Assembly (NCBI GenBank): GCA_963665095.1
Contig: OY762069.1
Location: 2,624,001 to 2,688,000 of the forward strand
DNA length: 64,000 bases
DNA from: an uncultured Desulfobacter sp.
GTDB lineage: Bacteria; Desulfobacterota; Desulfobacteria; Desulfobacterales; Desulfobacteraceae
Reading direction: 5' to 3'
Positions 2,178 through 16,071 of the stretch are shown here, piece by piece. The notes beneath the pieces are model-generated. The model was not told the origin of the DNA and did not search any database. It was given only the letters and a program-made list of their open reading frames with translations. Position 1 is the stretch's first letter; every line of letters begins with the position of its first letter. The position numbers and the translations under genes were made by a program.

Positions 2178-3080
2178 ATGAGAAGAAAGATAGTATTGAA
2201 CGGACCAAGCAGCCTGACTGTATCGCTTCCGACACAATGGATAAAACAGAATAATGTCTCTAAAGGCGATGAAATAGAGATCAGTGAGGAAGACAATAAC
2301 CTTATTTTGACGGCGGTCAATAATGCCCATAAAAATAAGAGCATTGAACTATCATTTGACAACCTGAACAAGGCAGCAAGAAACAACATTCTTCTTGGAT
2401 TATATATCAATGGCTATGATGAGATAAAGATCAATTTCAGTGAGGCCGATTATTCGAAATCCATATTTGCGTACCTTACAAGCAACCATCTTGGTTTTGA
2501 GATATTGAAGCAGGAGGCAAATTATCTTATAGTGAAAAATATAACGACTCCAAACCTCTCGGAGATGAACAACCTGTTCAGAAGGATGTTCAGAATCCTG
2601 ATTGAATATATGCGAAAGATCTCACATATCATGTCCGCTACTGATGATATGACTGAAACCCCGCTGCTATACAAGACCTCAATTGACAGATATTCAAATT
2701 ACTGCAAACGGATGGCGATGAGTTTAGGGTACAAGAAATCTGTATTCAATAATTCAATTATTGATGATATCCAAAGGATTGCAGCAGAGCTATCAGAGTT
2801 TCTGGATGAGATCAGGGAATCAGACGAGCAAGAAAAGGCAATAATCAATGATGATGGAGTGTTCAATGACCTGATTGGATTCCTTGATGACTGTCATAAT
2901 CTAAGATATAATTTTTCGCAGGAGAGATATTCATCACTTCTTTCATCTTCGAATAAGATATCTGCAAAGATTGATTCTTTCAGGCAAAGAAATGATAATT
3001 CCTGCCACTACGAATACATAAGGTCGATAAATGCAGGATCAAGAAGCATCCTGAACAATATCCTCCTTGAAAATATCTGA
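2178..3080 (+). CDS. Archaeal-type AbrB/MazE-PhoU phosphate uptake regulator family protein
   Basis: N-terminal RKIV..GPSSLTVSLPTQWIK...KGDEIEI AbrB domain, GYDEIKI and GFEILKQ middle motifs, helical PhoU-like C-terminus. Confidence 0.8.
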   Translation: MRRKIVLNGPSSLTVSLPTQWIKQNNVSKGDEIEISEEDNNLILTAVNNAHKNKSIELSFDNLNKAARNNILLGLYINGYDEIKINFSEADYSKSIFAYLTSNHLGFEILKQEANYLIVKNITTPNLSEMNNLFRRMFRILIEYMRKISHIMSATDDMTETPLLYKTSIDRYSNYCKRMAMSLGYKKSVFNNSIIDDIQRIAAELSEFLDEIRESDEQEKAIINDDGVFNDLIGFLDDCHNLRYNFSQERYSSLLSSSNKISAKIDSFRQRNDNSCHYEYIRSINAGSRSILNNILLENI

Positions 3081-3451: not shown

Positions 3452-5641
3452 TTATATTTCCATGAATATCTTGTCTGCCAGGACCAAAGTCTGGTTCCTG
3501 ATTGAGGCATCATCATTATCATAATATAGCTCATCAATATAGACGCTTCCAAATAGTATCCCATCTTGTGTCTCTTGTCTGAAATTTCCTGGTAAAAGCA
3601 GCTGTTTTAGTCTTTTTTTGTATTTATGCTTATCATATCTTTTATAGAACTGAAGCGATTTGACCAAAGCCAGGCTGTCTTCCGGGATATCGTATTCATC
3701 ATTATGATATGAGACAAAAAATTTATCTTTTTGATCTGCTGAATATCTGTCATCATAGTATCTTTCAAGAATCCGGATCTTGTCCATGTAAATCTCATTT
3801 CCAGTCAGTTCATAAAGATCAAGCAGGATTTGTAGCAGCTCCTGGAAGTCTTTTGAGAATATTGAAGTCTTATCCTTGAACTCATCCAGCTCCATTATTT
3901 TATATGAGATATGCCTTCCTACCGGATCATCAAGATACGGAACTACAAGCCTTGAATGCTTATCATCAGGCATGGATACCCCATTGGGCAGGGTCATGTT
4001 CACCATGCTAAGCTCAAAGACATACCCGTCATCTTCGATATTCATGTAAGTGAACTGCTCCATATATTTTTCGGTCAGCTCAAGATATTCAGGATCACCA
4101 GTTGTCTGATAAAGCCAAAGGAAAAGACGGAAATGGTATAGATGCATTGTCTGGACCATTCCAGCGGTCTTTTCAAAATCAGACTCCATCAAATCTGAAA
4201 CTCGGGTAAGCTTTTTCAGGTAAGTCTTCTTGTGCGTCTTTTCATACGCAGGTATCAACGCATAGATGAACCGAAGGTTATCAGAACCGTCATATTTTTC
4301 TTTAAGTATCGGCTCTGTATATTTGACTGCATATTCAAGCAGTTTAGGGTATCTGTCAGACTGTTCAAACAGCATCCCTGCGAAAACGCCTGCTGCCTCT
4401 GATTCAGGACCTTTAAAGACCCAACTCCCATCGGCATTGAGATGGCTTGGATACAGTAGATCCCTGGTATGTGTGTCTCTGAATTCACCCTCAAGCAACG
4501 GATTAAGATACTTCTTCTCAAAACTTCTGTGCTGAAGATCATAAAGTGCAGATTCAAGTTCTGGCAGGCTTGGAGCTGGATTTCTCTCTATCTTATTCAA
4601 TATCGCTTCACTGCTCAGGAAATAGCGGTCATATGCACTATAGCAGCCGCCCGCTATCATGAACAAAATGACGATACTGAAAATCGTAACTATCTCCTTT
4701 TTGTGTTTGGCCACGAATGCCGCCTGCTTCTCATTCCGGTGCAACTTTTCCATGTCAGCCAGTATCTCATTTTCGCTCTTAAAAGATGAATGATTACTTG
4801 CCGCTTTTTCAATCAGGTTCTTTGCCGGCCTTGATAATACATTTTTCGCTACAAAATCATGGCGCAATTTCTGTTCAAGTATCTGTTTCCGGCTCATCCC
4901 AGAAAACGGCTTTGCCCCTGTCAGCATCTCATAATATACCAGGAAAAGCTGGTATACATCAGTCCTCCAATCAATTTTGTTGCCGTTTATCTGTACTCTT
5001 GACAGGTAATTGAGTGTGCCATTGATGCCTTGATTGGTCTTGCCCTGGAACATCGAAATCCCGAAATCGATAAGATAGGGTTTACCATTGCCCTGGATTA
5101 TAAGGTCCAGGAATTCAGCATCGATATTTTTCTTTCGTTTGATACCTTTGACTGACAGGATTATATTTGACGGTTTGATGTCGCAATGGATTACTCGGAC
5201 CTTTTTCCCATCATAACTGACATCGTTGTGCGTGTAATGGAGCGCTTTTAACAGATTGATGATGATTGAGGTTGCTATTTCATTGGGCAATCTTGCATTT
5301 CTTCCGTTCAATGCATCAATGATCTCACGAAGAGAATATCCCTCTATATGCTCCTGCCGAAATATCAATGCATCTTTTGACTCAAGCATGTCATATATCG
5401 CCGGGATATTAGGGTGATGGATAGCGCTCAGTATCTTTCCCTGCTGGATAAATGTTTTCCTCTGAATCGGTTCAACTGATTCAAGGAATTTGATATCTTC
5501 AAGCCTGCCTGCAAGCTTCCTGTTCCTGGCGACAGCAACCCCGCTGAATGGATCACTTTCAAATATATCCAATATTTCAAAATTGTTTTTTTCAAGGATA
5601 GCCTTTATCTGATTGCTTGATCTCTTCAGTGGGTTATCCAT
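3452..5641 (-). CDS. Membrane Ser/Thr protein kinase (Hanks type) with C-terminal alpha/alpha-toroid domain
   Basis: HHPNI, HCDIKPSNI, DFG, GTLNY, TDVYQL; one TM segment (IVTIFSIVILFMIAGG); C-terminal LWLYQTTGDPEY and LYELTGNEIY repeats. Confidence 0.85.
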   Translation of the reverse strand: MDNPLKRSSNQIKAILEKNNFEILDIFESDPFSGVAVARNRKLAGRLEDIKFLESVEPIQRKTFIQQGKILSAIHHPNIPAIYDMLESKDALIFRQEHIEGYSLREIIDALNGRNARLPNEIATSIIINLLKALHYTHNDVSYDGKKVRVIHCDIKPSNIILSVKGIKRKKNIDAEFLDLIIQGNGKPYLIDFGISMFQGKTNQGINGTLNYLSRVQINGNKIDWRTDVYQLFLVYYEMLTGAKPFSGMSRKQILEQKLRHDFVAKNVLSRPAKNLIEKAASNHSSFKSENEILADMEKLHRNEKQAAFVAKHKKEIVTIFSIVILFMIAGGCYSAYDRYFLSSEAILNKIERNPAPSLPELESALYDLQHRSFEKKYLNPLLEGEFRDTHTRDLLYPSHLNADGSWVFKGPESEAAGVFAGMLFEQSDRYPKLLEYAVKYTEPILKEKYDGSDNLRFIYALIPAYEKTHKKTYLKKLTRVSDLMESDFEKTAGMVQTMHLYHFRLFLWLYQTTGDPEYLELTEKYMEQFTYMNIEDDGYVFELSMVNMTLPNGVSMPDDKHSRLVVPYLDDPVGRHISYKIMELDEFKDKTSIFSKDFQELLQILLDLYELTGNEIYMDKIRILERYYDDRYSADQKDKFFVSYHNDEYDIPEDSLALVKSLQFYKRYDKHKYKKRLKQLLLPGNFRQETQDGILFGSVYIDELYYDNDDASIRNQTLVLADKIFMEI

Positions 5642-6832: not shown

Positions 6833-7357
6833 TTAAATTTTTAGCCGATAAAAATCTGGCCGATTTGAACCAGAAGCTTTTTCAAGGAGGGAAGTCCCGT
6901 GTTTAGAAATATAATTTGCGTTCAATTTGAGAATTGTTTCAGGCGAAAGGGCAATACCACTCTGGTATTCAATATTTCGACTGATTTCATCAATAGACAA
7001 GGAGCCATTGATTGGTGTGCAGGCATATGCTTGTTCAATGAATTCATCTATATGCCGCCTGAGGTGCATGTAATTTCGCTTATAGTTCGTGATCCTGTCC
7101 TTTATTCCCGGTCGTTTTTTTTCATAGGACCATGTTTTACACTTAAGTTTTTTTTGAGATTTTTTGTACTCAGGGAACAACCAATAATACAAAGTGGCTC
7201 TCGACAATCCGCCATGCTCGATTCCGATCTGTTCCAAAGCGGCAGATTTTTTGTAGCCCTGATTATTAATCAAATCGTTATACATATCAGTCCATTTCTG
7301 AACCAGCTCCGGCCCATAATTCGTAGGCGTTTTAAGTTTCCATTTCTTTTGCCCCAT
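6833..7357 (-). CDS. HTH DNA-binding protein, divergent from the ubiquitin-like operon
   Basis: KSAALEQIGIEHGGLSRATLYYWL HTH; second possible wHTH at LSIDEISRNI. Confidence 0.55.
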   Translation of the reverse strand: MGQKKWKLKTPTNYGPELVQKWTDMYNDLINNQGYKKSAALEQIGIEHGGLSRATLYYWLFPEYKKSQKKLKCKTWSYEKKRPGIKDRITNYKRNYMHLRRHIDEFIEQAYACTPINGSLSIDEISRNIEYQSGIALSPETILKLNANYISKHGTSLLEKASGSNRPDFYRLKI

Positions 7358-7434: not shown

Positions 7435-7659
7435 ATGAACAAAACAACCACACAAGACGCAATTGAAGGGCTTAGTTCGATTATTGACAATATTGAAAAG
7501 AAAGAGGGCCACAGCGGCTATCTTCTTGAAAAGCTCACCACCCTGAAGATGGACCTGCTTGACGAATTTTTTACATTGAGCAAACCAGCACCCAAAAAAC
7601 AGAAACCGAAAAAGTCAAAAATCGCATCTGCACCGGCTAAAGCCTCGGACCAAATCTGA
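7435..7659 (+). CDS. Hypothetical protein with basic C-terminal tail
   Basis: GAGGAG RBS; first gene of a co-oriented run. Confidence 0.55.
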   Translation: MNKTTTQDAIEGLSSIIDNIEKKEGHSGYLLEKLTTLKMDLLDEFFTLSKPAPKKQKPKKSKIASAPAKASDQI

Positions 7660-7677
7660 TGGAAAGGAGGCCTACTG

Positions 7678-7992
7678 ATGTTTAAAGAAATATACTCCTT
7701 CATACTGTTCTTCATGCCTTTCGCAGTAATAATTAATACTACTTTGTCACTTGATTACCTTTTCAAGGATATTGACCATAGTGCCCGATTGGTTATGGCT
7801 TGGGGCACTAATTTGACATTACTAATTCTTGGTTATTTCAGTCTTTGGTTTATCCTGATTTTTCTCGTTCTAATAACAGCTGCGACCTTGTTCGTCGCTC
7901 TTAAGAGAAACAACATCAATCATAAGGATATTGAAATTTTAAGCCTTATTTACAATCCAAAACAAAAGGAGGAACGACATGGCGTTTCGTGA
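7678..7992 (+). CDS. Small membrane protein
   Basis: AAGGAGG RBS; about three hydrophobic segments. Confidence 0.6.
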   Translation: MFKEIYSFILFFMPFAVIINTTLSLDYLFKDIDHSARLVMAWGTNLTLLILGYFSLWFILIFLVLITAATLFVALKRNNINHKDIEILSLIYNPKQKEERHGVS

Positions 7993-8215
7993 CATGGTTA
8001 AAGAACGGATAGTAGAGATCAATGAGCAACCAAAACTTGTTCCTGAAATCGTTACCCCTAGAGAAATGATTTTGAGGGCTGGTGAAGACCCTAACGTCCG
8101 TGAACTGATTGTAGCATATGAGAATGATACTACTGACGTATGCCCGATTGATGTACCTATCCGGCTCAAGGATGGAATGCGGTTCGAGACACAGGTGCAA
8201 AGCACAAACGGTTAA
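7979..8215 (+). CDS. Ubiquitin-like (beta-grasp) protein with C-terminal Gly
   Basis: AAGGAGGA RBS; 78 aa, VEINEQ..VTPREMILRAG..L..IRLKDGMRFET multi-ubiquitin-type pattern; ends STNG; directly upstream of E2-like and JAB-E1 genes. Confidence 0.75.
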   Translation: MAFRDMVKERIVEINEQPKLVPEIVTPREMILRAGEDPNVRELIVAYENDTTDVCPIDVPIRLKDGMRFETQVQSTNG

Positions 8216-8230
8216 ACTTAAACTGGTTAT

Positions 8231-8260
8231 AGCTGGGAGGCATTGTTCCTTCCAGCTTTC
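8231..8260 (+). terminator. Stem-loop between the Ubl and E2 genes (weak terminator or stabiliser)
   Basis: AGCTGGGAGG-N7-CCTTCCAGCT, 10-bp stem with one G-U pair and a short T run. Confidence 0.55.
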
Positions 8261-8283
8261 CATAAATATTTAAGGAGACAATT

Positions 8284-8724
8284 ATGAATAAAGTTAATGA
8301 TGCAATCAATTCATTTTTTGTCAGACGGTGGCATGCCGCCAACCTTAAGCTTATCAGACAGCTTTATCCAGATGCCATTATGGATCGATTAGGGTTTGAA
8401 TGGTTGGTAATCCCCGAATTTGAACTGCCTAAAGTATACAATCAAAAAAATGCTTTCTTTAGAATGGATATGCCAGGATTAAACATCCATAATCATGAAG
8501 GATACAACTTCTATGTTTCCAAGGGTCTCACAAGGCCTGATTTGGAATCCTTCGAACATATATTTAACGAAAAGTATAATATTCATGCCAATAAAGGATT
8601 ATGCTGGCTGAGTCTTCACATTAAATCATTCAAGCCATCGTTATCCAATATAAATTCTGGCGATACCTTACTGAGCTTGATCCAGAATGTATATAATTTT
8701 CTGGCACTTAAAAAAGGATTGTAA
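8284..8724 (+). CDS. Prokaryotic E2/UBC-fold protein (family E-like)
   Basis: WLVIPEFELPKVYN...MP...FYV..GL...WLSLH..FKP...GDTLLSLI pattern and position between the Ubl and E1 genes. Confidence 0.7.
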   Translation: MNKVNDAINSFFVRRWHAANLKLIRQLYPDAIMDRLGFEWLVIPEFELPKVYNQKNAFFRMDMPGLNIHNHEGYNFYVSKGLTRPDLESFEHIFNEKYNIHANKGLCWLSLHIKSFKPSLSNINSGDTLLSLIQNVYNFLALKKGL

Positions 8725-8727
8725 ACC

Positions 8728-10134
8728 ATGAAAATCAATTTTCTCGCAGTCCTGTTCAATCTTTTAAAAGAAATATTGTTTTGGGATGGAAAGGAGAAAC
8801 AGGTGTTCCTTTTCTGCCATCGTTCATCCTATAAAAACGAAACGACTCTTCATCCATATAAGATCCTCGAAGCAGATGAATCCGATTATACCCACCGGAG
8901 TTCTGGTTATTGCCAAATTGACAAGCCTTTCATTGACAGGGTCTATAATGAAGCGATAGCAGAACAGGCTGATATCATCAAAGTGCATTCGCATCCACCA
9001 GGCTACCCTGCCATTTTTTCACCTATTGATGAAGAAAAAGACCCTGAATTATTAAGGCATATCTCAGCACAGATTGAAGGGATTCAACTCGTATCTATTG
9101 TATTTGACCCGACATTTAAATCAGTTGACGGTTGGTATTATGACAGGGAAAACGATGCAATGCTGCCTGTGGAAAAAATATCAGTCATCAAAGAAAGCGA
9201 TCTTGATATCCTTTTGCCTGAAAGAAGTTCTCTATACCAAAAGCCTTTTGATCCGGTATTGGGCAGGACAGCGGCTGCATTCGGCACAGACCGTGTTATG
9301 AAGATCGGTTGCCTTACTATCGGCATTGTCGGTCTTGGGGGTATCGGAAGTGCATTATATGAAACCATTGCGAGAGATAAGCCTCAAAGAATAATCCTTT
9401 GCGATCCGGATGTTATCGAAAAATCAAACCTAAACAGGATATATGGGGCCACAAAAAAAGATATTGGGAGATACAAAGCAGAATTTTATGCTGGCCAAAT
9501 CAAAAAAATCAGCCCAGATACACCTGTCATTTTCTTCAACAAATCCTTATATGATCCAGAAGTCCAGCAAGCATTCACTCAGGCAGAAATAATTTTCGGA
9601 TGTGTCGATTCAGGGGCAAGGCTGTCCATCAACCAACTCTCGATGGCACACAACATACCCTATTTCGATCTTGGTGCATCAATCGTGAGCGATAAGGGAA
9701 GTCCTGAATACATCGGCGGACAAATATATACATGCATCCCTGGAAACAATGCATGCCTCTCCTGTGCTGGCTGTTTCAATCATCTTCTTTCAGAATACCG
9801 TTCACCCCTGGAAAGGAAAGCTGATGCTGAACAGGGCTATATCAAAGGAGAAGATGTCATTAATCCCTTGGTTGCATACCTTGACCAGATTATCGCAGGA
9901 CTGGGGTACAGCGAGTTCATAAAATACGTTTTTGGTCTGACAGAAAAACCTGCATTTAAGGTCTACTACGATGCTTTGAAGAACAAATTGGTCAGTTCTA
10001 ATTGCGAAACTGAATCCTGTATTGTCTGCCATAAGGATGGTTTTCTCGGCAAAGGCAACAAAGTGCCATTTCTCACACCAAAGGAGGACAAGGAGGATAG
10101 AAACCTGCTCACTGTCCTTGAATCAACGGAATAA
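8728..10134 (+). CDS. JAB/MPN peptidase-ThiF/E1 adenylyltransferase fusion
   Basis: N-terminal HSHP...FSPID JAMM motif; GIVGLGGIGS, DPDVIEKSNLNR, GCVDS, Zn pairs CLSC and CIVC. Confidence 0.9.
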   Translation: MKINFLAVLFNLLKEILFWDGKEKQVFLFCHRSSYKNETTLHPYKILEADESDYTHRSSGYCQIDKPFIDRVYNEAIAEQADIIKVHSHPPGYPAIFSPIDEEKDPELLRHISAQIEGIQLVSIVFDPTFKSVDGWYYDRENDAMLPVEKISVIKESDLDILLPERSSLYQKPFDPVLGRTAAAFGTDRVMKIGCLTIGIVGLGGIGSALYETIARDKPQRIILCDPDVIEKSNLNRIYGATKKDIGRYKAEFYAGQIKKISPDTPVIFFNKSLYDPEVQQAFTQAEIIFGCVDSGARLSINQLSMAHNIPYFDLGASIVSDKGSPEYIGGQIYTCIPGNNACLSCAGCFNHLLSEYRSPLERKADAEQGYIKGEDVINPLVAYLDQIIAGLGYSEFIKYVFGLTEKPAFKVYYDALKNKLVSSNCETESCIVCHKDGFLGKGNKVPFLTPKEDKEDRNLLTVLESTE

Positions 10135-10148
10135 AGGAGGACAATGAA

Positions 10149-10658
10149 ATGACTAATGATGATCTGCAAAATATTTTGCAACAAATACATGTTACCGAAA
10201 ATAGCAGGACGATCCATGACCCATTTCCAGACACATTACCTATCGATAACCAAGCTGCCCAATTAAGCCAAAAAAGAAAGAGGTTGGTCATTATACCGCT
10301 TACTGAAGACACTTTAAACAGTTTGTTTGAACAGAATGTCACAACTGGTATGGTTATCAATGGCCCAGTGGTGATAGATGAGACCAGGTCTGCTCACGTC
10401 GCTGGTTGCGGCCATGTCATCGGATTATCAGACAGCAACACCTTATCTGCAATATGTGGTGTTTGCAACCAGGTCGTCTGCACTCAGCCCCAATGTTCTG
10501 TGCGATGCGATAAATGTTCCTTAATCGTATGTCGAAAATGTGCTTCTGATGTGGATAGCAAAAATATCTGTTCAAACTGCCGGGGCTGGTATGTTTTCAA
10601 GAAGCGTGTCACTGATGCAATTTTGGGAATCCATCATATTCTTTCAAGGAAAATCTGA
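10149..10658 (+). CDS. Multi-zinc-finger protein (B-box/treble-clef-like)
   Basis: AAGGAGG RBS; CGH followed by ten more Cys (11 Cys + 1 His). Confidence 0.75.
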   Translation: MTNDDLQNILQQIHVTENSRTIHDPFPDTLPIDNQAAQLSQKRKRLVIIPLTEDTLNSLFEQNVTTGMVINGPVVIDETRSAHVAGCGHVIGLSDSNTLSAICGVCNQVVCTQPQCSVRCDKCSLIVCRKCASDVDSKNICSNCRGWYVFKKRVTDAILGIHHILSRKI

Positions 10659-10662
10659 AGCT

Positions 10663-12012
10663 ATGTATGATCCATTTGAAACAAATGCGCAACTGGAAAG
10701 ACAGCAGCAGCCTGCAAACAATCATTTTTCTGATTATGAGCAGCTTAAACTTCTGAAGCAAGCAAAATCTGTATATCTGAGCAACGATGATCGTTTTCAG
10801 AAACTGTTACAGGCTGCAACAATCAATCAGGATACTGAGTTTCTGGCAATGGCACAGGAATATCTAAATGAAAAAATTATGCAGAGCCTGACTGATCCAC
10901 ATCCTTTTGAGTCGCCCTCTGCACAAGTTTCATCGATGCCAATGCCTGACCACCCAATACTTATGGGAAAGATCAAACGGGAAGAGCACAGGCCTTTTCT
11001 ATACAAAAAAGATGCCCTCAATCAGCACATATTAATTACTGGCGGAGCCGGTACAGGGAAAACAAATTTACTTTACTCTCTTGTTTTGCAGGTCATCTTC
11101 TATGGTCTATATGTCCTAATATTCGACCGTGACAAAAAAGATTTCCGACACCTGAAAAATTTCAAATTAGGTAAAGATATCATCGTTTTGAGGGTCAAGG
11201 ATTTCTTCTTCAATTTTCTTCAAGTCCCGTCAAATGTCACACCGCAGGAATGGATTATCAGCTTCTGTTTTATATTCACCCATTATTTCGATCTTCTTGC
11301 AGGTTCTGAGGGCTTTCTTATCCCGATTATCACTTCATTATACAGAGACTACGGAATTTTCGATGGCAAGACCACATATCCCAGCCTTAATGATCTCTAT
11401 GACCGTGTTAAAGCTCTCCCTGTCAAAGGTTACTCAATGCGGTTCAAGGACACAATCCTTAACCGGCTTGAATCATTCCTGGCTCTTTACGGTCCTGCCT
11501 GTGAAGTCTCTCAAGGCATTCCTATCGAATATATCGCCAGTAACAACATTGTATTTGAGATATCAGAACTGACCGAACGTGCATCAAGGTTCTTTGTTGG
11601 AGTAATCCTCATGGCATTGTTTAAGCATCGCATTGCTTCAGGGATGATAGGAAATATTGTACGAAATATCGCAGTCATTGATGAATGCAGGTATTTGGTC
11701 CCGCCAGGTTACAATCAGAATCTAAATTTCAGCCCATTGACCTCCCTTCTTTCCCAATCACGAGATGCTGGTATTGGTATTATCCTTTCAGATCAGTCGG
11801 CACAGTTGGAACCAGCGGTTTTCGTGAACACCAGATGCAAGCTCACTTTCCGTCTTGGTAATGGCTTTGATATCAAAAAAATCGCTCAATCGATGTCCCT
11901 CACCAGAGAACAGGAGGCTTATATAACCAGTATGGGTGTTGGAGAGGCTATTGCAAAAATTCCACAGGATGACCCGTTTGTCATCCAGACACTTCCTGTA
12001 AATATTGAATAA
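10663..12012 (+). CDS. HerA/VirB4/FtsK-superfamily P-loop ATPase (DUF87-like)
   Basis: HILITGGAGTGKT Walker A, IAVIDE Walker B, SRDAGIGIILSDQS; ATG 10663 follows AAGGA. Confidence 0.85.
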   Translation: MYDPFETNAQLERQQQPANNHFSDYEQLKLLKQAKSVYLSNDDRFQKLLQAATINQDTEFLAMAQEYLNEKIMQSLTDPHPFESPSAQVSSMPMPDHPILMGKIKREEHRPFLYKKDALNQHILITGGAGTGKTNLLYSLVLQVIFYGLYVLIFDRDKKDFRHLKNFKLGKDIIVLRVKDFFFNFLQVPSNVTPQEWIISFCFIFTHYFDLLAGSEGFLIPIITSLYRDYGIFDGKTTYPSLNDLYDRVKALPVKGYSMRFKDTILNRLESFLALYGPACEVSQGIPIEYIASNNIVFEISELTERASRFFVGVILMALFKHRIASGMIGNIVRNIAVIDECRYLVPPGYNQNLNFSPLTSLLSQSRDAGIGIILSDQSAQLEPAVFVNTRCKLTFRLGNGFDIKKIAQSMSLTREQEAYITSMGVGEAIAKIPQDDPFVIQTLPVNIE

Positions 12013-12022
12013 TGGGGCAATC

Positions 12023-12247
12023 ATGAACCTTTACCAGATAATTATATCGCTCATAGTCCTCATATTGTTTGTCCATGTATTTGAAGCAAAAGAGGCAATG
12101 ACAGAGTTCATAAACCGGCTTTTTGATATACCGAAATTCTCGGATTACGGGTCGAACGAGCCGATTTTCAAAATTGTTGTTCGGGCAATTTATCTCATTA
12201 CCTTGGTTGGTATCATTAAACTGTTTGTAAACAGGGGGAAAAAATGA
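12023..12247 (+). CDS. Small two-TM membrane protein
   Basis: 74 aa, two hydrophobic segments; stop overlaps the next start. Confidence 0.55.
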   Translation: MNLYQIIISLIVLILFVHVFEAKEAMTEFINRLFDIPKFSDYGSNEPIFKIVVRAIYLITLVGIIKLFVNRGKK

Positions 12248-13032
12248 AGATGTACCAGAGAAATGTTACAGATGCGTTTATCCATATGGACACTCAGGCA
12301 AATCTTTCATCAATAATAGATCAGTTTATCGTCCCACGGGTTATCCTTGGAAATTCAGTCAAAGAAAACAAGCCAGTTATCCATAACAAATCTGATGATA
12401 AAAAAATTGTAGAAAAAGCCTCTGAAGATGAGATCCTAGTTCTTGAAAGCATTTTTGAGAATCTAAACCTGCCTTTAAAAAAACGACAGGCCTTGCTTGG
12501 TCTTTCACCCTATATGATGAACAAATTAAAAATTTCAATTATTGAAAAGGGATATTCTTTACAGCTTGATATCAACCTCGGAAAAGAATTCGGCGGAAAA
12601 ATCGTATTATTGGCACTCACTGATAAAGGTCACGATGTTATCGGCAAGGAGCCTTATCTACCAAGACCCTACAAACGGGAATCATTAGAGCATGTATGGT
12701 GGAAATACAATCTCTGGCTGTCATACAAAAACAAGAATATCCCTGCTGAGATCGAACAGGTCAGAAATGGAAAGCATGTTGATATCGGCATTCGTATAAA
12801 TGAACAGAATATAGCAATTGAGGTCGAGCTATCGGCCAAAAATGCCATTACAAACATCATTCAGGATATCAAAGTTGGCTTTGATCGTGTCCTTTCATGC
12901 TCAAAAAGCAAGACATTAGAGAAAGCTATCATACAGCAGTTTGAATCGCATCCTGACTACCTGAAGCTAAAAGATAAAATTGAGTTCCGGCAGTTGTCTG
13001 ACTCCGGATTTGTAAAGGAGATAGCAAAATGA
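12244..13032 (+). CDS. wHTH plus PD-(D/E)XK-like nuclease (replication-relaxation-like)
   Basis: wHTH ending LALTDKG, then ESLEH and HVDIG...IAIEVELS. Confidence 0.6.
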   Translation: MKMYQRNVTDAFIHMDTQANLSSIIDQFIVPRVILGNSVKENKPVIHNKSDDKKIVEKASEDEILVLESIFENLNLPLKKRQALLGLSPYMMNKLKISIIEKGYSLQLDINLGKEFGGKIVLLALTDKGHDVIGKEPYLPRPYKRESLEHVWWKYNLWLSYKNKNIPAEIEQVRNGKHVDIGIRINEQNIAIEVELSAKNAITNIIQDIKVGFDRVLSCSKSKTLEKAIIQQFESHPDYLKLKDKIEFRQLSDSGFVKEIAK

Positions 13033-14081
13033 TTTTTGATGATAGGAATAATTTCACCAAAAACGATGTAATCAAATCATATAGCTATCTTTCTCACAGA
13101 CAACATGGATTTACAGAGCTTTTAGCTATCCACAAAGATTATAAGCCAGGCAGACAGAATTTTAAGTTAAATCTCGAAAACAAGAGATTGCCAAAAGTCT
13201 GGTATACGAAAAATATAAACCATGTCCTTTGGTTCGTATCAAAGTATCATAAGGATCATACGTGCTGTTATGGTGTCAATCCACGGCCAGGAATTCTGAT
13301 AAATCAAAAAGGCAGGATCAGAAGCGCAAAAGAAGACGATATCAAAATACTAAATAATTTCTATTTCGATATCGATTGCAAAAAGCCGAAATCAGAATTA
13401 ACAGATGAATATTTTGCCGAAGTCCAATTCTTTATCGCAGGAACTGAATGCTTTTTTGAAGACCGGGGTATAAATCCGCCAGGTATCGCTTTTTCAGGCA
13501 GAGGTTTCCACCTTCTCTTCACTCCAATCCCGATTCAAGTTGATAAACATCCAGACATCAAACAAAAAATTATCCAGTTTAAAATCGACTATGAACAATA
13601 TTGCAAAGATTGTCTGGAAAAGCTCAATCTTAAAATCGATTCAACTCTCGACCTTAGACGAATGGTCAAGATCTATGGGACAAGCAAACCCAATGTCTAT
13701 AGGCCATCATTGTTTTATGACATGGAACGAGTTGAAGATCCTGCCCTCACGAAATACCTGATAAACATTGAGGTCGATAATGATTCACCAGCCAAATCAG
13801 TGGTCTATATAAGTTCTGGGCTTCCGCAGAATTTCCAACGAATTTTGGAAAATAACCAATTAATCCAGAAAATCTGGGATGGAACCGGAAAGACTCAAGG
13901 TGATGTTTCAAACTCCGGCTACGATTTCTCATTGGTGAAACTTTGCCTGAAGAACCATATCACTGACATAAATGATTTATCAACGATTCTTGCCTTAAGG
14001 CCGAACGGAGCTTTCCAGAAAAGCGGGAAAGATGAAACGTATATTAAGAGGACTGTAAGCAAGGCCATAATGTCATGTTAA
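13029..14081 (+). CDS. Archaeo-eukaryotic primase superfamily (RepB/prim-pol-like) protein with helical C-terminal domain
   Basis: YGVNPR, FYFDID, FSGRGFHL, DLRRMVKIYGT; C-terminal DVSNSGYDFSL. Confidence 0.8.
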   Translation: MIFDDRNNFTKNDVIKSYSYLSHRQHGFTELLAIHKDYKPGRQNFKLNLENKRLPKVWYTKNINHVLWFVSKYHKDHTCCYGVNPRPGILINQKGRIRSAKEDDIKILNNFYFDIDCKKPKSELTDEYFAEVQFFIAGTECFFEDRGINPPGIAFSGRGFHLLFTPIPIQVDKHPDIKQKIIQFKIDYEQYCKDCLEKLNLKIDSTLDLRRMVKIYGTSKPNVYRPSLFYDMERVEDPALTKYLINIEVDNDSPAKSVVYISSGLPQNFQRILENNQLIQKIWDGTGKTQGDVSNSGYDFSLVKLCLKNHITDINDLSTILALRPNGAFQKSGKDETYIKRTVSKAIMSC

Positions 14082-14272
14082 TGTCAAAAACCCGAAATAA
14101 AAAACCGCCGCGCAAAAAACGGCAGAATAATTCCCTGAAGATCACCTATGAATTTTTGCCGCCAGGTTCCTTGAAGCGCAGACTGCCAGGTTCGGAACAA
14201 TCTGCCAAGCAAAGATGGGAAGAGATTCTTGACATATGTGCTGAAACAATAATCGATAATTCCAAAAAATGA
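14081..14272 (+). CDS. Small basic protein, candidate recombination directionality factor
   Basis: 63 aa, Lys/Arg-rich, start overlaps the primase stop, immediately upstream of the recombinase. Confidence 0.4.
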   Translation: MSKTRNKKPPRKKRQNNSLKITYEFLPPGSLKRRLPGSEQSAKQRWEEILDICAETIIDNSKK

Positions 14273-14396: not shown

Positions 14397-16037
14397 ATGA
14401 AAAATAGAAAGTGTGCTCTTTATATCCGGGTTTCAACATTGAGGCAGGCAAGTGTTGAGGATGGTTCCCTGGATGCTCAGGAGTCAAGGTTAAGGAAATA
14501 TGTCGATTATGAAAACAGCAGGGATACATTTTGGGAAATATCCGGTGTTTATAGAGAAGAAGGCAGGTCTGGAAAAGACCTCAACCGCCCAGAGTTCCAA
14601 AGGATGATTCAGGATATCAACTCCGGAAAAATAAACACAGTCATCGTATACAAGATTGATCGGCTGACAAGATCGTTGAAAGATTTTTCCAACCTTTGGG
14701 ACCAATTACAGGACAAAGGTGTCGAAATAATCTCATTGAACGAAAAATTCGATACGACAACCGCCATCGGAAGGGCAATGATAAACATCATTCTTGTGTT
14801 CGCACAATTAGAAAGGGAACAGACAAGCGAGCGTACAGCTACAACCATGCAATACCGTGCAGAACAAGGCCTTTGGAACGGCGGCAGGGTTATTGGCTAT
14901 GACCTTGATCCGGATGATAAAGGGACTTTGAAGATCAATGAGGATCAGGCAAAAATTGTGAAAAGAGCATTCAATCTATGCGTTGAGACAGGTTCAGCGG
15001 GCCAGGTCCAGAAGATGTTAAACGAGCTTGGCTACCGGATGCCTGTCTATGAATCAAGGCGTGGAAAAAAGCATGGCGGTAATCTGTTCAACAAGCAAGC
15101 TATCATAAAAATGCTACAAAACCCTGTATATGTCGGCCAGATCACATGGAACGGAGAACAGTATGAAGGAAGGCATGATCCAATCGTTGATGAAAATTTG
15201 TTTTCCAAGGTCCAGGGCATCCTTGGCAAGAACCGGAAAACCAGGTCAAACAGCAAGATGCCAAGAGAGCATACCTATCTTTTGCAAGGGATACTTACCT
15301 GCGGCAAATGCGGGTCTATGATGACGCCCAAAAGTGGGATAGGCCGTTCTAACAGATATTATTATTACCAATGCACCAAACAGGCTCATATTGGAAAGGA
15401 TGCCTGTGATGTCCGGTATGTGCCAGCAGAACCAATTGAAAATTTTGTCGTTGAAAGGGTCAGAGAGCTGACAACTAATGAAGAGGAAATCGATAAGATT
15501 ATCCAAAGGGCAAACAAGAACAGTGATCATAAGATCAGGGAATTGGCAGACACAAAAACGAGCGTTTCCAATAACCTGCAAGAAATAAACAAGAAATTGA
15601 ACCAGATAATAGATTCGATTGAAAACGGAAGCCTAAAAATTTTTGATTCATTAAACAACAGGATAGAATCATTGGAAAAAGAGAGATCAGATGCAGAGGA
15701 TAGGCTGAAATCCATTGATTTTGACATAATGAAGCTTGAACAGGACAGGCTTTCATCTGAGGTCATGAGCCAATCATTCAAATCATTTAAGGATATAATC
15801 GATAAGGCCAAGCCTCAGAAACTTAAAGAGCTGCTGTACAGGATTGTCGAAGTTGTTGAATGGCATGAAAATGATGAAGATAGGGCTTCAGGCCACTGCA
15901 AAATATCATATTTTGAGCAGCCTTACCTAAACTTGCCCCAAAATAAAAAACTGGACGACCAGTGTGGTGAACACCGGTTCGCCCAGAGTATTGTTTGGCT
16001 CCCCAGCACGGACTTGAACCGCGGACTTAGTGGTTAA
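14397..16037 (+). CDS. Large serine recombinase (integrase)
   Basis: YIRVST catalytic motif, DRLTR, recombinase domain, CGKCG...YYQC...C zinc ribbon, coiled coil. Confidence 0.95.
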   Translation: MKNRKCALYIRVSTLRQASVEDGSLDAQESRLRKYVDYENSRDTFWEISGVYREEGRSGKDLNRPEFQRMIQDINSGKINTVIVYKIDRLTRSLKDFSNLWDQLQDKGVEIISLNEKFDTTTAIGRAMINIILVFAQLEREQTSERTATTMQYRAEQGLWNGGRVIGYDLDPDDKGTLKINEDQAKIVKRAFNLCVETGSAGQVQKMLNELGYRMPVYESRRGKKHGGNLFNKQAIIKMLQNPVYVGQITWNGEQYEGRHDPIVDENLFSKVQGILGKNRKTRSNSKMPREHTYLLQGILTCGKCGSMMTPKSGIGRSNRYYYYQCTKQAHIGKDACDVRYVPAEPIENFVVERVRELTTNEEEIDKIIQRANKNSDHKIRELADTKTSVSNNLQEINKKLNQIIDSIENGSLKIFDSLNNRIESLEKERSDAEDRLKSIDFDIMKLEQDRLSSEVMSQSFKSFKDIIDKAKPQKLKELLYRIVEVVEWHENDEDRASGHCKISYFEQPYLNLPQNKKLDDQCGEHRFAQSIVWLPSTDLNRGLSG

Positions 16038-16071
16038 CAGCCACTCGCTCTGCCAACTGAGCTACTGGGGA
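15996..16071 (-). tRNA. tRNA-Asn(GTT)
   Basis: Reverse complement TCCCCAGTAGCTCAGTTGGCAGAGCGAGTGGCT-GTT-AACCACTAAGTCCGCGGTTCAAGTCCGTGCTGGGGAGCCA; 76 nt, cloverleaf, encoded CCA. Confidence 0.97.

Follow-up and report, generated by a model that had tools for sequence, protein, structure and literature searches.

A BubE-less relative of Type I Bub conjugation modules in the integrase-proximal gene run of an element integrated at tRNA-Asn

We analysed a 64,000-nucleotide stretch of DNA (the window) from an uncultured Desulfobacter sp. (GenBank assembly GCA_963665095.1, contig OY762069.1, positions 2,624,001 to 2,688,000), in which the right end of a 71,869-base element integrated in tRNA-Asn carries a run of genes for a putative ubiquitin-like protein (Ubl) conjugation module and a HerA-like ATPase. 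The run comprises 11 co-oriented plus-strand genes between 7435 and 14272 (Table 1), separated by gaps of −14 to 68 bases (successively 18, −14, 68, 3, 14, 4, −8, −4, −4 and −7 bases), with a further 124 bases to the recombinase gene. A sequence-only reading of this DNA had described a co-oriented, tightly spaced run ending at the integrase, and all of the open reading frames (ORFs) that it listed were recovered on the plus strand at their positions; its ten named genes are present, and the gene for the 80-amino-acid (aa) membrane protein, 60% identical to a relative in the related locus L001, had been overlooked. Its labels for the Ubl, the E2, the JAB-E1 fusion and the HerA-like ATPase are backed by the comparisons below, the archaeo-eukaryotic primase (AEP) by motifs and Atlas clusters, and the nuclease by motifs with weak library support. 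The 12-ligand zinc finger corresponds to the 169-aa protein, which has 11 Cys and one His as candidate ligands. The helix-turn-helix (HTH) proposed for the divergent gene was not confirmed: its product had no match in Pfam, NCBIfam, PADLOC or PHROGs, and showed a weak pairwise likeness to the product of the divergent gene of L087 (E 0.002).

Table 1. Features of the gene run and its flanks (window coordinates).
Feature	Position	Strand	Basis or remark
Divergent 174-aa gene, possible regulator	6833..7357	-	HTH label unconfirmed
Small protein, 74 aa, Lys-rich tail, opens the run	7435..7659	+	ORF
Membrane protein, 104 aa, hydrophobic	7678..7992	+	Hydropathy
BubA-like Ubl, single beta-grasp, 78 aa, C-terminal Gly78	7979..8215	+	AlphaFold2 (AF2), Foldseek
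BubB-like E2, 146 aa, Ser110-x-His112	8284..8724	+	Profile match to BubB
BubCD-like JAB peptidase-E1 fusion, 468 aa; E23/H87/H89/D101, R237, Y371; C4 zinc site	8728..10134	+	PDB 9ea4
Cys-rich treble-clef zinc-finger protein, 169 aa, C-terminal helix	10149..10658	+	AF2, weak structure matches
HerA/DUF87-type ATPase, 449 aa	10663..12012	+	Pfam DUF87; PDB HerA 4d2i
Two-helix membrane protein, 80 aa	12005..12247	+	ORF, hydropathy, L001 relative
Predicted winged-helix and PD-(D/E)xK nuclease, 262 aa	12244..13032	+	Motifs
Predicted AEP, 350 aa	13029..14081	+	Motifs, Atlas
Basic protein, 65 aa, before recombinase	14075..14272	+	56% identical relative in L001
Large serine recombinase, 3' end overlaps attR	14397..16037	+	Pfam Resolvase, Recombinase, Zn ribbon
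attR core, 9 bp	15996..16004		Repeat of tRNA 3' end; empty site in 8 same-genus genomes
tRNA-Asn, integration target	15996..16071	-

The gene order is unlikely to be fortuitous, because L001 repeats it gene for gene from the Ubl through tRNA-Asn at 37–73% identity. A look-alike of the 74-aa protein sits before the L001 Ubl (recognised by eye; no BLAST match at 1e-3), and no counterpart of the 104-aa membrane protein was found there; the 65-aa basic protein could be a directionality factor. Furthermore, a single 45.6-kb short-read contig covers the DNA from the module to the tRNA with no differing letters (the runs may come from the source sample), which argues against misassembly.

The closest relatives of the module were identified through its E1. 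Scoring of 7,999 candidates yielded 313 matches, with 38 JAB-E1 relatives at 40–56% identity and a drop thereafter, and a profile of 35 of these relatives matched Citrobacter BubCD (9ea4) in the PDB (E 3.4e-45) far above other E1s. Residues E23, H87, H89, D101, R237 and Y371, invariant in 35/35 sequences, align with E28, H91, H93, D104, R227 and Y370 of BubCD, whose catalytic roles are taken from the accessible text of PMC11601596; the only conserved Cys residues are those of the C4 zinc site, and the crossover-loop catalytic position is Tyr371. The E2 profile matched only Citrobacter BubB in the PDB (E 0.0012), and comparison with a Prok-E2_E protein (hhalign probability 90%) placed Ser110-x-His112 on the Ser-x-His of BubB. 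This Ser is kept in 12 and the His in 13 of 14 relatives, the exceptions being one natural Cys and one degenerate paralogue. The Ubl model adopts a beta-grasp fold (AF2 predicted local distance difference test (pLDDT) 82), for which the top Foldseek rows were BubA or bacterial multi-ubiquitin proteins (TMq 0.71–0.77, E 1.4e-3 to 2.6e-3). Its last Gly is kept in 9/9 relatives, being terminal in five and followed by one extra residue in four.

BubE (DUF6527), by comparison, gave no match in this genome or in any of 22 related loci (control locus L006 was positive), and the E1 tree resolves the group that includes the window as one clade (support 98/100), distinct from that of the BubE-linked E1s (100/99). 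Judged from these sequences, the module appears to be a Bub-lineage ubiquitin-like conjugation system that retains Type I chemistry; we regard it as a variant of Type I Bub rather than a member, because BubE is absent from the genome and from all of those loci. The alternative of a sulfur carrier of the ThiS/MoaD kind, acting without protein conjugation, draws on matches of the E1 to Pfam ThiF and NCBIfam ThiF/MoeB models, all of which lie below the equivalog cut-offs; given an E2 with conserved Ser and His and a JAB domain encoded alongside, closest structures that are Bub proteins shown to conjugate, and a run devoid of sulfur-transfer or cofactor genes, this alternative is most improbable, in line with the proposal from the sequence alone that the Ubl is conjugated.

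Several related loci depart from this arrangement. A third E1 clade (95/99; L004, L005 and L022) carries, in the Ubl slot, an ORF of about 60 aa ending in PP(V/Y)xFx(R/H)G plus 0–2 residues (L004:5343-5531, L022:9337-9519, L005:9148-9429); none of the three ORFs matched the window's Ubl profile, and they possibly represent a peptide tag instead of a beta-grasp. In L008 (9580-9987) the catalytic Ser of the E2 is replaced by Cys, suggesting a natural, thioester-capable Bub-type E2, and in L009 a second E2 paralogue without Ser and His (1290-1697) lies upstream of an intact module. In L003, L008, L009, L011, L012 and L019 the Ubl is preceded by small membrane proteins whose Pro-rich tails end in EIP(Y/F)N or a similar motif. 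The exact EIP(Y/F)N-type end was found in 4 of 5,760 short ORFs, all upstream of these Ubl genes, making the proteins candidate substrates or anchors. The contig that carries L002, a locus of the window's E1 clade, is short and is listed under Woesearchaeota.

Downstream of the module, the ATPase scored above the Pfam DUF87 cut-off, with HerA (4d2i) as its best PDB match (E 3.6e-26). In most relatives the ATPase and the nuclease-like 262-aa gene form a single fused gene; the product of the 262-aa gene gave CoiA_nuc in Pfam at E 0.024 only and no match to Replic_Relax (PF13814) up to E 1. H150, E171, D180 and E193 of this protein are invariant in 7/7 sequences, a pattern that we take, from motif knowledge, to belong to the PD-(D/E)xK fold. 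The primase had no sequence match in Pfam, PHROG or PDB; it carries DxD and SGxGxH motifs and fell in AEP-family Atlas clusters (0.94–0.95). For the zinc-finger protein (AF2 pLDDT 87; a family of at least 493 representatives), comparisons returned weak treble-clef matches of the FYVE/ZAD type only and no clear RING match. It also directly precedes the ATPase in L074, L083, L092 and L122, where no E1 is nearby. The E3-like role earlier suggested for it thus lacks support, since the finger tracks the ATPase even where the E1 is absent and does not clearly resemble a RING; a role as partner of the ATPase is the better reading.

The integrated element was delimited by a direct repeat at the tRNA end together with an empty site in relatives. 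Its attL is a 9-base copy of the tRNA 3' end at G000:C1:2568136, 71.9 kb upstream, located after a terminator-like hairpin of the tRNA. The arms expected on either side of the att repeat in an excised circle form an inverted match at 8/9 bases. In eight same-genus genomes (nine stretches, two from one genome) tRNA-Asn adjoins the gene that here lies 72 kb upstream. The G+C content of the element is 38.4%, compared with 48.7% for the genome. Elsewhere it carries another ATPase from the family of the one in the run, along with a tyrosine integrase, ParB, ArdC, two RadC, insertion sequence (IS) elements and, within G000:C1:2574299-2615126, an RHS-repeat protein and defence cargo comprising prokaryotic Argonaute (pAgo), GmrSD, Gabija and type III restriction-modification genes. 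It is probably composite, because the second ATPase, the tyrosine integrase, the defence cargo, the RHS protein and the IS elements are also aboard. The second ATPase lies with a coiled-coil gene and the tyrosine integrase in the left part of the element (G000:C1:2581090-2585084), and its close relative in L081 adjoins a nuclease and an integrase. No relaxase was recognised on the element.

To what extent the module and the ATPase travel together was assessed from both sides. Profile scans of candidate stretches (6/45 and 17/73) gave 23 loci, which reduce to 19 distinct loci after one canonical Bub locus and three duplicate pairs are accounted for. The ATPase lies within 4.2 kb of the module in nine of these, is missing from the available DNA in three, and could not be assessed in seven that are too short; seven of the nine linked loci are co-oriented with a zinc-finger gene in between and two are divergent. 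The linkage is therefore not peculiar to this genome, and in L001 it extends to the whole order. The ATPase occurs anywhere in the genome in 12/400 same-phylum and 10/300 same-order genomes, and in 0/5 control JAB-E1 loci. In L004, L005 and L022 the last features are an integrase and a tRNA (tRNA-Leu, -Glu or -Asp), and the linked elements as a whole use serine or tyrosine integrases and four tRNA types. Because the module-linked ATPases are spread over at least four separate marked clades of the ATPase tree, the data point to repeated gain or exchange of modules among ATPase lineages. A RemA-like gene lies near L012, L018, L019 and L021 (module, no visible ATPase) and L073 (an ATPase locus), suggesting that these five belong to related elements.

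In the reverse direction, 56 ATPase regions, a subset of those found, were taken, and 51 were counted after the removal of one fragment and of four stretches that were duplicates or lacked the ATPase. An E1 was found within 3.5 kb of the ATPase in 5/51 regions (4/32 among those extending 4 kb or more to both sides). The module is optional and dispensable for the element, because the remaining 46 regions have no E1 within that distance; the placement of the module in the element's core, as first proposed, thus stands insofar as the run next to the integrase of a real element contains the module, and fails insofar as the module is not obligatory. The five E1-bearing regions (L072, L087, L076, L105 and L125) carry other Ubl-type modules in the same slot. 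In L087 and L076 this comprises a Ubl, an E2-like protein with a Cys motif, a JAB protein and a short E1 of a type found nowhere else in the 400 same-phylum genomes. In L072, whose ATPase is sister to that of the window (99/98), a UBC-like Cys protein (weak PDB match, E 0.56) and a JAB-E1 separate the ATPase from the nuclease. L105 and L125 fall in a clade of longer ATPases that is accompanied by kinase and WD40-like genes. From their sequences these alternative modules are apparently cysteine-based. A 72-aa ORF without terminal Gly occupies the tag position of L072 (9362-9580), between the ATPase and the E2-like gene; a tubulin/FtsZ-like gene lies on two ATPase-nuclease elements (L074:12495-13703, L083:6151-7288); and a haloarchaeal plasmid (L133:5009-8761) carries duplicated Ubl-E2 pairs followed by a JAB-E1, with no BubE match.

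Taken together, the locus holds a real BubE-less variant of a known pathway, reproducible across genomes, in an undescribed element context. The conjugation chemistry, from the Ubl to Tyr371, to Ser110 and to a lysine, is very likely by homology. By analogy with Citrobacter Bub biochemistry, the E1 would adenylate Gly78 of the Ubl and form an oxyester with Tyr371, and the Ubl would be handed to Ser110 of the E2 and then to the target lysine with no E3. The invariant JAB domain would most likely act as the deconjugase, because there is no BubE and the Ubl would need no trimming in five of nine loci. The weakest step is the target: the tag may be attached to the HerA-like ATPase, to the zinc-finger or membrane protein that partners it, or to the corresponding proteins of a competing element, and tagging would then tune DNA processing or export. 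Our preferred explanation, held tentatively and at slightly less than even chances, is that a BubE-less relative of Type I Bub in the element's integrase-proximal run tags a protein of the element's ATPase-nuclease core as an optional layer of control.

A number of observations weigh against this explanation. The window's type of module was found in none of the 51 ATPase regions, and an E1 of any kind is missing nearby from most of them. The nine linked loci and the window represent about six lineages and are not independent (L008, L013 and L023 are mutually 79–94% identical); in L011 and L016 the ATPase is on the opposite strand, 3–4 kb away, and L003, L012 and L019 have the module without an ATPase in the available DNA. 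At the position of the Asp that accompanies Ser-x-His in BubB, the E2 has Asn75, with Asp kept in 2/14 relatives. The part played by the ATPase and nuclease is itself one that we infer: the link of the 262-aa gene to Replic_Relax is a weak Atlas lead (0.87, 13% of members), the closest solved relatives of the ATPase include defence HerA proteins and, as regards mating-pair formation, no mating-pair or phage structural genes were recognised when 65 element ORFs were compared with Pfam.

Some of these points fit a module that is passenger cargo, inserted in a hot spot downstream of the main promoter of the element, where it would tag host or phage proteins, with the core neighbours incidental. 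Its optional presence, the shuffling of modules among ATPase lineages, the three loci without an ATPase, the tubulin-like, vWA and other cargo genes in nearby slots, and the occurrence of Bub operons in tRNA-inserted mobile elements, already reported in the accessible text of PMC11601596, all agree with it. However, the window's E1 clade occurs mainly on these rare elements and has lost BubE throughout, translation of the E1 appears to be coupled with that of the zinc finger and ATPase in seven loci, and unrelated Ubl modules share the slot, in L072 even between ATPase and nuclease; we therefore consider passenger cargo somewhat unlikely. Unlikely, too, is an anti-phage system in which the Bub-like module would sense infection or tag on infection and arm the HerA-like ATPase-nuclease as a cell-killing or DNA-degrading effector. 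Pairs of HerA and a nuclease serve as defence effectors, the top ATPase matches include defence HerA structures, known defence genes (pAgo, Gabija, GmrSD, type III restriction) lie on the same element, and Bil and CBASS use Ubl machinery for defence according to the accessible literature; but no PADLOC system fits the run, the ATPase-nuclease genes mostly lack an E1 and often lie beside primase, excisionase-like and integrase genes, a layout typical of an element backbone, and, according to the accessible text of PMC11601596, E. coli was not protected against phage by any Bub operon.

If a protein of the element core is indeed the tagged species, as in our preferred explanation, this would account for the repeated landing of unrelated Ubl modules beside the same ATPase. 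It is possible, albeit doubtful, that an undescribed and widespread family of HerA-nuclease elements in uncultured bacteria has repeatedly captured Ubl ligase modules, of both oxyester and thioester type, to tag its own or a competitor's DNA motor, giving a ubiquitination-controlled life cycle of which the BubE-less Bub clade is the dedicated version. For the Bub pathway, as far as the accessible sources show, the chemistry is known and the target and role are not; a BubE-less lineage beside a short list of element genes provides candidate targets for conjugation, and were the target the element's own ATPase or its partners, it would constitute a bacterial ubiquitin-like pathway outside anti-phage defence. 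A further prediction of the proposal is that the BubCD JAB domain is able to act as a deconjugase.

Left of the run, the window contains a Ser/Thr kinase fused to a glycoside-hydrolase-like (alpha/alpha) domain, with a membrane segment between the two (3452-5641), as well as two paralogous small genes (27% identical) and an AbrB-domain protein (758-1267, 1803-2330, 2178-3080), all three of which, we presume, recall archaeal genes.

Among known systems, no paper on the pairing of a Bub-like module with a HerA-like ATPase was found (most subscription papers lie outside the coverage), nor did the literature searched describe an element family matching this HerA-nuclease element; the words 'ATPase' and 'integrase' do not occur in the accessible text of PMC11601596. 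The occurrence of such clusters on conjugative elements is noted in the accessible part of PMC1779556, which also raises zinc-finger adaptors as a speculation. With HerA-nuclease pairs and integrative mobilisable elements the locus shares a HerA/FtsK-superfamily ATPase and nuclease, small membrane proteins, a primase and an integrase, and, elsewhere on the element, ArdC, RadC and ParB; unlike mobilisable elements, it has no recognised relaxase or mating-pair genes. A self-transmissible integrative and conjugative element was rejected as a candidate, with no VirB4-type mating-pair system among the 65 element ORFs and no match to PF03135 in the whole genome. Type II CBASS Cap2/Cap3 shares E1, E2 and JAB chemistry, whereas here there is neither a CD-NTase nor an E2-E1 fusion, and the match is limited to the nucleotide-binding part of the E1. 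Bil (BilABCD, Type I/II; 10.1101/2023.09.26.559546), as described in the accessible text, shares separate Ubl and E2 proteins, a JAB peptidase and the lack of an E3, but has a stand-alone JAB, an IAD-AAD-CYS E1 and Cys thioesters; identity with Bil was rejected, as the E1 here has an N-terminal JAB domain and Cys only in its C4 site, the E2 has Ser, and PADLOC BilD gave E 0.054 only.

The closest counterpart is Type I Bub (6E.1/DUF6527; BubAB, BubCD and BubE; PMC11601596 and PMC11601603, accessible text), which shares the JAB-E1 with catalytic Tyr, the E2 Ser-x-His, the beta-grasp Ubl ending in Gly, the order Ubl-E2-JAB/E1 and the location in a tRNA-integrated element. BubE, which all Bub operons encode according to the accessible text of PMC11601596, is missing here, and the E1s form a separate clade with about 28–30% identity to BubE-linked E1s and a conserved C4 zinc site, whereas the Citrobacter sequence lacks the first CxxC. 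The Pfam models Prok-E2_E and Multi_ubiq fail to detect the E2 and Ubl, and the E2 Asp is not kept. The Ubl and E2, fused as BubAB in the Type I definition, are separate here and 68 bases apart; this is a weak criterion and not distinctive, because the two are split in 3/3 BubE-bearing controls as well. A further difference is that the module described here is followed by a zinc finger, a HerA-like ATPase, a nuclease and a primase.

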